A stretch of 64,000 bases of DNA from Candidatus Latescibacterota bacterium (GCA_965248435.1 OZ252100.1:4032001-4096000); one strand, 5' to 3'. Positions 7,999-10,110 are shown, numbered from the stretch's first letter. The notes: a model not told the origin generated them from the letters alone. Made by a program: numbers and translations.

Positions 7999-8027
7999 TT
8001 GTATACGGCATCTTTACTCATTATACT
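7999..8027 (+). promoter_or_regulatory. Sigma70-type promoter for rlmH (probably leaderless)
   Basis: TTGTAT-17 nt-TATACT, with the ATG 7 nt after the -10 box. Confidence 0.65.
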
Positions 8028-8033
8028 GCACAG

Positions 8034-8504
8034 ATGCGGATCACCCTGCTCACTGTCGGCCGGTGCCGGACCGCCTACCTGGAAGAGGGTGCTGCCGACT
8101 ATGCGAGGCGAATCGGGAGATATGCCACACTGGAGCAGGTGGTCGTGAAGGAGGAACGTGGGCAGAAGGGCAGGCTGAGCGAGGATATCACTCGGAAGGA
8201 GGGAACGCGTCTGCTGGATGCCGTTCATGGAAACGCGTTCCTTGTCGCGCTGGATCGCTCGGGCCAGGCATGCACCTCGGATGATCTGGCGGCGCGGATC
8301 TCTGAGCTGGGTTTAGCCGGACGGAGTCGGATGGCGTTTGTGATCGGAGGCGCGTTCGGCCTTGCCCAGGAGGTCTTGAAGCGCGCGGATTGGCGTCTCT
8401 CAATTTCATCCATGACGTATACGCACGAGATGACCCGATTGGTGATCCTCGAACAAATCTACCGGGCATTCACTATTCTGAGGGGGGAGCCTTACCACAA
8501 ATAG
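8034..8504 (+). CDS. rlmH: 23S rRNA (pseudouridine1915-N3)-methyltransferase
   Basis: FVIGGAFGL, SSMTYTHEMTRLVILEQIYRA and terminal GEPYHK. Confidence 0.96.
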   Translation: MRITLLTVGRCRTAYLEEGAADYARRIGRYATLEQVVVKEERGQKGRLSEDITRKEGTRLLDAVHGNAFLVALDRSGQACTSDDLAARISELGLAGRSRMAFVIGGAFGLAQEVLKRADWRLSISSMTYTHEMTRLVILEQIYRAFTILRGEPYHK

Positions 8505-8558
8505 GTTTTCTACGCCGGAGGCGAAACTTCCTGCCCGGTACTGAGTTCAATCCGAAGC

Positions 8559-8901
8559 AAAAATAGCCCGGGGGAGAGGACGTCGAACAGCCGGGGAGAG
8601 ATGATTCCTTAGCCAGGAATCCGGCTGCTCGGGCCTGTCAGCCCCCGGGCTTTGCCACGGGCGGAATCAAACAGAGGAAACCACGACCTGAAGACTCTGG
8701 TGGGAAAGAAGATTTATGAAACCGGCACTTCTGTCGATTTGGCCTCCAAAAGGGCCAGACCAACGATCCAGCGGGGAAGAGAAACGGAGCAACTGAGGGA
8801 AGGGAGATTCCAGGCGCCACGGTCGATCGCCTGACTCATCCCAGGGGTCGGGATGATTGTCAGAGATACTGACACGGCGCAACGAGGGGATCCTCGCAAG
8901 C
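8559..8901 (-). ncRNA. Candidate structured non-coding RNA (~340 nt), family not recognised
   Basis: Upstream promoter, at least five helices with G-U pairs that form only on the minus strand, 3' hairpin plus U-tract, and no credible ORF. Confidence 0.55.
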
Positions 8902-8907
8902 AGGATT

Positions 8908-8936
8908 AAGATAAGCCACTGTTTTTGTTGAGTCAA
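8908..8936 (-). promoter_or_regulatory. Sigma70-type promoter driving the candidate ncRNA
   Basis: Minus strand TTGACT-17 nt-TATCTT. Confidence 0.65.
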
Positions 8937-9021
8937 GAGGAAAACCCGTGGATCGTCTCAGTTTTAGCCGGAGCCCGGATTCAGGTTTATATTATCTTCG
9001 GATATCTATCATATAAAGGAG

Positions 9022-10110
9022 TTGGCCCCACAAACTCTGCAACACGAGGCTGAATTGGTGGACCACAAGCTGAGAGTCGGGATTGTTGGCGTCGGCGGCA
9101 TCGCCCGCACACATCTCCCCGGATGGGAAGCTTCAGAGCACGCTGAAGTGGTGTCGGGGTGCGATATCGACGTGTCTGTGATCAACGCGTGGGGAAAACG
9201 GCACGAGATCGCAAAGGTGACGACCGACCCGGACGCCCTTTTCAGCGACTCGAAGGTCGATCTGATCGATATCTGCACGCCGAACGTATCCCACGCCGAT
9301 CTCGTGATCGCAGCGCTGGAAGCTGGAAAACACGTGCTTTGCGAGAAGCCTCTGGCACCGACGCCGGAGGCCATCCGGAGGATCATGGATGCAGAGGAGA
9401 GATCCGCGGGGAAGCTGATGACGGCTCAGCATTATCGATTCGAGGGGACGTCGAAGGCCCTGAAAACGGAGATCGAAACGGGTGTCCTGGGTGACATCTA
9501 CCACGCAAGGAGCTGGCTGCTGCGTCGCGCGTCCATGATCACGAGGCCTGGTTTCACGCAGAAGGAACTGAGCGGCGGGGGCGCCTGCATCGACATCGGG
9601 GTGCACGTGCTGGACCTTACGCTCTGGTTTATGGGCTTTCCGAAGGCGACCTGCGTGACCGGTGTCGCACGGTCCGAACTTTCCAAGCAGGAGGGTGCTT
9701 TCCTCAACAATAAGGTTGTGATCCCTCCGGGAATGGACGTGGAAGAGTTCGCGGCCGCCTTCGTCCGGTTCGAGAACGGCGCCACCCTGATCCTGGAGGT
9801 CAGCTGGCTGCTCCACCACGACGTGCCAGGCGAAGACCCTCAGATCTGGCTCTACGGGAGCCGGGGGGGATGCCACTGGCCGCGATGCGAGATGTATGAA
9901 TCCAACACCGCTGCCCGGCAACATTACAACCGTAGCCTCAAATTGACGAATGAGAAGCTGGAGGCGCACGCCCTGGAGTGCGTTGAATTCGCGCAGGCCA
10001 TCGTGGACGGCGCGCCGTCTCCTGTTCCTGCATCGCAGTCGCTTCAGGTTTTGAAGATCCTCGACGGGGTCTACCGAAGCCAGGAGAGTGGCCATGAGGT
10101 GAAGATCTAA
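9022..10110 (+). CDS. Gfo/Idh/MocA family oxidoreductase
   Basis: VGIVGVGGIA Rossmann motif, HVLCEKP, GGGACIDIGVH. Start may be GTG 9058. Confidence 0.92.
   Translation: MAPQTLQHEAELVDHKLRVGIVGVGGIARTHLPGWEASEHAEVVSGCDIDVSVINAWGKRHEIAKVTTDPDALFSDSKVDLIDICTPNVSHADLVIAALEAGKHVLCEKPLAPTPEAIRRIMDAEERSAGKLMTAQHYRFEGTSKALKTEIETGVLGDIYHARSWLLRRASMITRPGFTQKELSGGGACIDIGVHVLDLTLWFMGFPKATCVTGVARSELSKQEGAFLNNKVVIPPGMDVEEFAAAFVRFENGATLILEVSWLLHHDVPGEDPQIWLYGSRGGCHWPRCEMYESNTAARQHYNRSLKLTNEKLEAHALECVEFAQAIVDGAPSPVPASQSLQVLKILDGVYRSQESGHEVKI

Follow-up and report, generated by a model that had tools for sequence, protein, structure and literature searches.

The window analysed in the present work, a 64,000-nucleotide (nt) stretch of DNA from Candidatus Latescibacterota bacterium (GCA_965248435.1, OZ252100.1:4032001-4096000), carries beside the gene rlmH a conserved unit on the minus strand which is non-coding, which belongs to no catalogued RNA family, and which is very probably a real and expressed RNA gene. 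The unit comprises a promoter, a body of about 343 nt and a terminator-like 3' hairpin, and comparison with related genomes indicates that it is conserved, with its own putative promoter and terminator, in one order (two families) of Latescibacterota. It constitutes a new RNA family of a familiar kind, that of the bacterial small RNA (sRNA) with C-rich motifs. As for its mode of action, the reading which is tentatively preferred here, with somewhat less than even confidence, is that of a stand-alone sRNA which would act in trans by pairing with G-rich ribosome-binding sites.

Promoter, transcript and parts of the RNA

The spacer that holds the unit (8505-9021) lies between rlmH and a gene for a Gfo/Idh/MocA oxidoreductase which begins at about 9022, both on the plus strand; the genome of the window (G000) is 5.67 Mb long with 56.6% G+C, is 97.5% complete, and contains the RNA gene as a single copy. 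A sequence-only reading of the window had proposed that a structured RNA gene of about 340 nt lies next to rlmH, had placed a TTGACT-17-TATCTT promoter before it on the minus strand, and had named a series of helices in its transcript. All of these elements are found where that reading had put them: the promoter is the sole promoter-like site in a scan of 8000-9500 (1 found against 0.5 expected from shuffles), the helices are all present on the minus strand and are formed by RNAfold in either the minimum free energy or the centroid structure, and the predicted transcript comes to about 343 nt when its 5' end is placed about 7 nt after the -10 hexamer and its 3' end at the U tract. The parts of the unit, and the neighbouring rlmH gene, are as follows.

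8905-8942, minus strand: conserved promoter block, with the -35 hexamer TTGACT at 8936-8931, a 17-nt spacer containing an A-tract and GGCT, and the -10 hexamer TATCTT at 8913-8908.
8559-8901, minus strand: the RNA itself, about 343 nt, delimited from sequence, fold and homologues, with both ends predicted.
8882-8897, minus strand: 5' hairpin P1, GCGAGG/CCUCGU with loop AUCC, from sequence and fold; its CGAGG/CCUCG core occupies 8896-8883.
8814-8880, minus strand: domain P2, with closing stem GCGCC/GGCGC and, inside it, UGUCAG/CUGACA and the apical element UCAUCCC-GACCCCU-GGGAUGA.
8766-8809, minus strand: C/U-rich, G-poor linker (CUCCCUUCCCUC ... UUUCUCUUCCCC), from sequence.
8733-8764, minus strand: middle hairpin GUUGGUcUGGCC/GGCCAaAUCGAC, from sequence and the RNAfold centroid.
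8565-8651, minus strand: conserved 3' domain, with base stem AGCCCGGGGG/CCCCCGGGCU and then an 8-base-pair (bp) stem GCAGCCGG/CCGGCUGU.
8595-8602, minus strand: invariant 8-nt internal loop AUCUCUCC on the 3' side of the 3' domain, from the alignment of 42 members.
8559-8564, minus strand: U tract AUUUUU, putative intrinsic terminator, from reading the sequence by eye.
8034-8504, plus strand: rlmH, encoding a SPOUT methyltransferase of the RlmH family (PF02590, E 6e-50); a neighbour convergent with the RNA and not a part of it.

The 3' domain also contains an apical hairpin, GGAUUCC-loop-GGAAUC, and its 10-bp base stem encloses the helices GAGCAGCCGG/CCGGCUGUUC and AUUCCU/AGGAAU before it runs into AUUUUU. 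Most of the 42 aligned members have a T run after the stem, and some members are without a clean U run. A simple terminator scan of 8000-9500, whose criteria are a short loop and a simple stem, lists no site because the hairpin is long and branched. Among the relatives the 5' hairpin is of other sequence, often with a C-run in its loop, and the region of the middle hairpin is variable and cannot be aligned outside the genus. When the folding energy of the RNA is compared with that of shuffled sequences, the minus strand gives z = -2.71 (1 of 100 shuffles equal) and the plus strand z = -1.86; the case for an RNA rests on conservation and not on folding energy alone.

Conservation and distribution

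A BLAST search of the spacer against 60 relatives yields matches in 47 of 61 genomes (G000 counted), and every match passes through the same two blocks, the promoter (query 80-117; 86-92% identity across the two families) and the 3' hairpin (75-85%), with 210-340 variable nt between them. In all 30 loci first examined, the promoter block and the 3' domain stand in constant order and orientation at that distance. This conservation of promoter, body and terminator domain as a unit in two families supports the proposal, made in the sequence-only reading, of a stand-alone regulatory or structural RNA.

The boundaries of the distribution were drawn with R1, a covariance model for which 42 distinct members supplied the 3' domain (alignment A1), and with a 26-nt promoter pattern allowing at most one mismatch. 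R1 detects the 3' domain in all 18 genomes of family f1 and in 28 of the 30 f2 genomes, the remaining two f2 genomes being 88% and 91% complete; it detects the domain in none of the 64 genomes of family f3 or the 38 genomes from eleven other families of the phylum sample. The promoter pattern occurs in 21 of 21 f1 genomes, 30 of 31 f2 genomes and none of 8 genomes of f3 and f4, and its reversed control gives one match in 61 genomes. When a pattern for the 3' core is run over 185,579 genomes, one per species, 40 stretches are obtained, of which 34 are titled Latescibacterota or Latescibacteria, 4 Gemmatimonadota or Gemmatimonadetes, and 2 simply "bacterium"; all of the genomes that contain them are metagenome-assembled. 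Over 47 distinct sequences the length of the RNA ranges from 226 to 347 nt, and the most divergent members, in genera g8 and g9, score 47-68 bits with R1, share the promoter, and measure 226-266 nt.

Covariation of the 3' domain and assignment of the strand

If the 3' domain is maintained as an RNA structure, then its pairing should be retained in relatives through compensatory substitutions, and the alignment shows that it is. RNAalifold returns 24 consensus pairs, at which 96.4% of the cells are standard pairs, compared with 34-55% after a shift of the 3' partners by 1-3 columns, and none of 500 shuffles reaches either the observed pairing or the observed covariation score. Changes on both sides are seen in 7 of the 24 pairs: in genus g3 (13 distinct rows) the base stem has three successive A-U pairs (AAA/UUU) in place of G-C pairs (GGG/CCC), pair 34/78 takes five standard pair types, and the otherwise invariant 8-bp stem carries a compensated change from CCGG/CCGG to CCAG/CUGG in three loci of genus g8. 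The covariation of the 3' domain provides real but moderate support for the structure. A joint fold of the RNA with that of its closest relative, at 70% identity, contains 82 pairs, of which 61 are unchanged, 14 are changed on one side and 7 are changed on both.

The 5' half of the RNA aligns poorly across clades. Since the clades do not stay in register in the P2 region, no more than 3 pairs are retained there by RNAalifold, and the alignment of that region omits 5 of the 47 sequences (L001, L002, L009, L111 and L112) that could not be aligned in the block.

The strand is set by pairs that are informative about direction. The G-U pair at columns 35/77 is retained in 39 of 40 rows, and further G-U pairs stand at 36/76, 22/88, 23/87 and 19/91; these would be mismatches on the plus strand, and together with the direction of the promoter they therefore fix the minus strand, in agreement with the argument of the sequence-only reading. 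R1 scores of 47-107 bits on the minus strand against 30-35 on the other are expected by construction and are not independent evidence.

Non-coding status and expression

No conserved open reading frame (ORF) is found on the RNA strand: among the 47 members the place, frame, start codon and length of the ORFs all vary, and 7 of the members are without any ORF of at least 20 amino acids. A small protein gene was considered as a candidate and rejected on the ground that its ORFs are not conserved in place, frame or length.

Contigs from 4 metatranscriptome runs in four studies, labelled as marine, seawater or hydrothermal vent metagenome, cover 8559-8894 at 95-99% identity. One contig of 259 nt lies wholly on 8635-8894 and one of 256 nt on 8628-8881; two more match just the conserved 3' domain and have unlike flanks, and therefore come from relatives. 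The cover stops at 8894, with no contig on the promoter side beyond this point or on the oxidoreductase gene, and the end of rlmH is reached by one relative's contig. Stretches that no contig covers carry no weight as evidence, and the contigs stop at differing places and do not map the ends of the RNA.

These data bear on the explanation that the conserved element is not an RNA gene at all, and is instead either a small protein gene or a DNA-level element, such as a set of intergenic sites bound by proteins. ORFs of 60-89 amino acids do overlap the region in the window, and the spacer of the promoter block is conserved as well as the hexamers are, as a DNA-binding site would be. On the other side stand not only the inconstancy of the ORFs but also indels between members that are not multiples of three, pairing that is maintained by compensatory changes, and the cover of the body by contigs from RNA libraries, so that very little probability is assigned to this explanation.

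Comparison with catalogued RNA families

The comparison with Rfam for which the sequence-only reading had called reveals no known family, 6S RNA included. A cmscan search of the whole window against Rfam 15 (4227 models) gives 0 matches at gathering thresholds, and a search of 8400-9150 at E values up to 10 gives only four chance matches to eukaryotic families, at 14-17 bits. The same reading had held that the RNA is not transfer-messenger RNA (tmRNA), RNase P RNA or signal recognition particle (SRP) RNA, and all three are in fact located elsewhere in G000 above the Rfam cut-offs, at 303, 206 and 72 bits respectively. The 6S RNA model, RF00013, has no match in G000, and in 151 genomes of the phylum it has none above the cut-off and 2 weak matches, but its sensitivity is limited, with matches in only 4-5 of 14 control genomes; it fails throughout the phylum, and the absence of a 6S match in G000 therefore says nothing specific. 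A separate observation follows for the phylum, which is that a 6S RNA of Latescibacterota, if there is any, goes unrecognised by RF00013.

It could be supposed that the RNA is itself a very divergent housekeeping RNA missed by the Rfam models, the first candidate being a 6S-like RNA that binds RNA polymerase. No 6S RNA is found in G000 or above the cut-off in the 151 genomes, so that the role is unfilled, and the promoter is strong-looking and highly conserved, in keeping with a conserved and probably abundant non-coding RNA such as 6S RNA. However, 6S RNA has a rod-like fold in which the 5' and 3' ends are paired and enclose a large central bubble. The present RNA has no closing stem between its ends and no central bubble; its predicted 5' parts form separate hairpins, its 3' end is a self-contained hairpin, its length is variable, and no match to a 6S-type or any other family appears even at E values up to 10. 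It is, moreover, confined to two families, whereas the missing 6S match is a feature of the whole phylum. A housekeeping role of this type is accordingly rated as highly improbable.

A full-text search of the literature found no paper linking Latescibacteria with noncoding RNA or Latescibacterota with sRNA. The main text of a preprint on prokaryotic non-coding sequence space (10.64898/2026.10.21.760802) makes no mention of Latescibacter, rlmH, C-rich or anti-Shine.

Genomic context and the relation to rlmH

The rlmH gene occupies the opposite strand and converges on the 3' end of the RNA in 43 of the 47 distinct loci (among these rlmH matches one is partial and one is split), with a gap between its stop codon and the RNA 3' end of 0-141 nt, and of just 2-13 nt in genera g8 and g9; the neighbouring gene on the promoter side varies from genus to genus. 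The RNA is not the leader of any gene, because its 3' hairpin faces the 3' end of rlmH; a leader or riboswitch would have a gene downstream of it on its own strand and in its own transcription unit, whereas in 43 of the 47 loci the gene that comes next is rlmH on the opposite strand. Three of the four loci without rlmH were examined, and in these the next gene is some distance downstream, in two cases with a promoter-like sequence of its own. The 3' hairpin probably terminates both of the convergent units.

The constancy of this arrangement suggests an explanation in which the unit serves rlmH, either as a bidirectional terminator or through convergent transcription that tunes rlmH by antisense read-through or interference, with an RNA body that has no function in trans. 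The convergence and the short gaps, maintained as the other flank changes by genus, are what such a role would lead one to expect, and the runs of A before the base stem in many members mean that the opposite strand, too, presents a stem followed by a U run. Yet the promoter and the 3' domain are kept in the 4 of 47 loci that have no rlmH within about 1.5 kb downstream, which include that of the same-genus closest relative, G001. Nor does a terminator need an invariant inner hairpin and loop, or conserved C-run loops 150-250 nt upstream, and the G-U pairs favour the minus strand. On balance, a unit devoted to rlmH is considered improbable.

Two further observations concern rlmH itself. In the sister family f3, the sequence after rlmH reads, by eye and not from an ORF call, as the end of a convergent ORF in the 6 loci, out of 9, that were examined; the promoter pattern is absent after rlmH at these loci, and the R1 3' domain is likewise not found in f3. 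In genome G024 (C1:488185-488651; loci L008, L136 and L146) the rlmH match is in two pieces with a reported in-frame TGA, which may reflect a frameshifted or broken gene or else an assembly error.

C-rich elements and the proposed mode of action

The features of the RNA that most directly suggest how it might act are its runs of C. Runs of at least four C residues number 2-10 in each of 41 members listed, recur near RNA positions 30, 60 and 105, and mostly have a high probability of being unpaired. In the window's RNA the apical loop of P2 presents CCCC at 8847-8844 with an unpaired probability of 0.99, and the C-run of the linker at RNA position 130 has an unpaired probability of 0.84; across the family, a C-run in a hairpin loop near position 60 recurs on stems of unlike sequence, and an unpaired C-run near position 105 is present throughout. 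Over 47 sequences these C-runs average 4.09 per RNA, compared with 2.57 in dinucleotide shuffles, and the corresponding runs of G average 0.87, so that most C-runs are without an internal partner. Conserved C-rich motifs in unpaired regions, which characterize the C-rich-motif (UCCC) class of sRNAs, are therefore to be found in this RNA.

The genome also offers the sites with which such motifs could pair. Canonical Shine-Dalgarno (SD) sequences are in use in G000, where 514 of the 4175 start-proximal windows contain AGGAG (123 in controls), with a peak 10-13 nt before the start, and where the usual anti-SD sequence closes the 16S rRNA. The hexamer GGAGAG, which is complementary to the core of the AUCUCUCC loop, is found in 82 start-proximal windows compared with 37 and 23 in controls. 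The sequence-only reading had described the linkers of the RNA as anti-SD-like tracts, and this description holds in part: the unpaired conserved elements are indeed C/U-rich and the complement of the loop is enriched at starts, but there is no likeness to the 16S tail beyond that of composition. A candidate mechanism in which the 3' core mimics the 3' end of 16S rRNA was rejected, the core scoring 14.5 against the organism's own 16S tail where shuffled sequences have a mean of 15.6 and 323 of 500 score as high.

The mechanism which is put forward, as a possibility assembled from these analyses, begins with the sigma-70-type promoter (8936-8908), which would drive a minus-strand transcript of about 343 nt. 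The transcript would fold into a 5' hairpin, a hairpin domain with the CCCC loop, a single-stranded linker rich in C and U, and a long conserved 3' hairpin at which transcription would terminate. The RNA would then act in trans, its unpaired C-runs and the invariant AUCUCUCC loop pairing without Hfq with the G-rich ribosome-binding regions of mRNAs, and this pairing would block the initiation of translation or alter the decay of the mRNA. Among modes of action, pairing with SD regions is taken as the most likely because similarly built sRNAs of Firmicutes are known to pair with SD regions without Hfq.

According to PMC2790875, the UCCC-motif sRNAs of Firmicutes, which include RsaE/RoxS, other Rsa RNAs and RNAIII, use unpaired C-rich motifs to pair with SD regions in the absence of Hfq. 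The Latescibacterota RNA resembles what is described there in being a stand-alone gene with a 5' hairpin, a terminator hairpin and several unpaired, conserved C-rich motifs, and in residing in a host which has strong SD sites and in which no Hfq was found. It differs from the Firmicutes RNAs in having no sequence or Rfam relationship to them (the RsaE/RoxS model is not matched), in belonging to another phylum, in being two to three times longer than RsaE, in possessing an invariant structured 3' core, and in its motif, which is CCCC/CUCUCC; candidate targets for it were not found.

Several results weigh against the pairing mechanism. GGGG is barely enriched at starts (423 of 4175 windows against 357 and 373 in controls), so that the CCCC loops do not match the main type of SD sequence, and any C/U-rich RNA would appear complementary to SD sequences, which makes the enrichment of the loop complement weak evidence. 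A search of G000 for the complement of a 14-mer from the core yields no candidate target: the 1 exact match is the core itself, and of the sites with one mismatch (5, where 1.8 are expected) or two mismatches (52, where 34.5 are expected) none lies at an evident start. The 10-mer complements of three exposed parts of the RNA occur in G000 at chance-like levels, with no pattern relative to starts among the first 40 matches for each part. The 3' core is invariant in sequence, its paired positions included; a pairing seed has no need of such constancy, which is more typical of recognition by a protein. The structural and expression data have limits of their own that count on the same side: the covariation reflects few independent events among related genomes, the hand-drawn 6-bp P2 hairpin is weak (75% paired, with a covariation score matched by 8 of 500 shuffles), and the metatranscriptome contigs are a hint of transcription which shows no strand, ends or level and which may be affected by DNA in RNA libraries.

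Protein binding as an alternative

The invariance of the core is the starting point for an alternative in which the RNA binds protein, either as a decoy that titrates an RNA-binding protein or as the RNA part of a ribonucleoprotein; the core would be a sequence-specific protein site and the C-rich loops additional binding sites, with the single-RRM (RNA recognition motif) protein of G000, Rho and ribosomal protein S1 as candidate partners. This alternative is the main and a serious rival, held to be only somewhat less probable than pairing, and it fits better the fact that the 8-bp stem, the apical stem and the internal loop are invariant over 40 distinct rows in two families, paired bases included. 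Known titrating RNAs carry several similar loop motifs per molecule, and those of the CsrB/RsmZ type in particular have similar short motifs in hairpin loops, a length of a few hundred nt, and a promoter and terminator of their own. The present RNA shares with CsrB/RsmZ the several loop motifs and its own promoter and terminator; it differs in that its motif is C-rich rather than GGA and in that no CsrA match is found in G000, and so lacks the features of a decoy of that type. A small gain for protein binding comes from a second locus, seen in five genomes, where this promoter precedes a C/U-rich leader (about 200 nt) and ORFs that resemble those of secreted proteins; this could mark mRNAs that share a factor with the RNA.

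The proteins encoded in the genome are also of interest in this connection. Pfam models of Hfq, CsrA and ProQ have no match in the 97.5%-complete G000, and there is one RRM_1 ORF. The latter lies at C1:1469592-1469801, in an open frame of 109 amino acids, and is a candidate general RNA-binding protein for the lineage. RRM proteins are described as sRNA partners in Bacteroides (PMC11697453; PMC13370968), and the RbpB-associated sRNAs GibS and FopS are characterized in the former as short RNAs with a single-stranded 5' seed and a Rho-independent terminator. The setting is similar, that of a terminator-ended sRNA in bacteria without Hfq or CsrA and with small RRM proteins; unlike GibS and FopS, which are deposited in Rfam, the present RNA is matched by nothing in that database, and its RRM partner is only a candidate.

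Against protein binding it must be counted that the locus has no RNA-binding protein gene linked to it, that hairpins with CCCC loops upstream of genes number 187 in the sense and 230 in the antisense orientation (1788 regions), giving no sign of a large mRNA regulon, and that the invariance of the core could instead stem from double duty as the terminator of rlmH on the other strand.

A reading that joins elements of protein binding and of pairing can also be formulated, and is regarded as a long shot. The RNA would serve as the scaffold for a ribonucleoprotein specific to the order, or as a sponge that takes up ribosome-binding sites globally; a dedicated protein would read the 3' core, and the C/U-rich loops would capture G-rich sites or a C-binding factor throughout the cell. 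It would be co-regulated, by way of a single promoter of unusual conservation, with the secreted-protein gene that bears a similar leader, and would be kept beside rlmH because both act on the translating ribosome.

A second promoter locus and other promoter-like sequences

A second copy of the promoter block, with 2 mismatches in 29, occurs in G000 on the minus strand at C1:543529-543799 (locus L116, 930-1200). After it come a C/U-rich leader (about 205 nt) with a terminator-like hairpin and then an ORF with a signal-peptide-like start, and the same layout of promoter, leader and ORF is found in G004, G036, G048 and G050. The second locus has no Rfam match. It was considered as a paralogue of the RNA gene and rejected: the promoter block alone aligns, and the leaders have C-runs in loops in common but no alignable sequence.

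Other sequences with a partial resemblance to the promoter are also present. In genus g3 a different conserved promoter-like block, TTGACATTCCAAAAACACCGGGCTAT or a one-base variant of it, is present as one copy in each of 8 genomes and stands apart from the RNA locus (for example in G013 at C1:1551548-1551573). Partial matches to the motif of the promoter spacer at C1:1174392 and C1:5202877 of G000 are halves of terminator-like hairpins, not promoters, one of the hairpins lying directly after a tRNA-like sequence, and they recommend caution in searches based on the motif alone.

Implications

To our knowledge Latescibacterota (formerly WS3) has no cultured representative. The RNA described here is the first well-delimited candidate for a regulatory RNA in this lineage, with a defined promoter, body and terminator and a distribution over two families, and metatranscriptomes from marine and vent sites apparently contain it. 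The kind of element, an sRNA with C-rich motifs, is a familiar one, so that the finding is solid and will not surprise the specialist. Its highly conserved promoter, which is common to the second locus, provides a handle on transcription signals in the phylum, and the RNA offers a test case for riboregulation in bacteria that are without Hfq, ProQ and CsrA but have a small RRM protein. If the scaffold or sponge reading were true, the RNA would represent a new type of global translational regulator in an uncultured phylum that lacks these three proteins.

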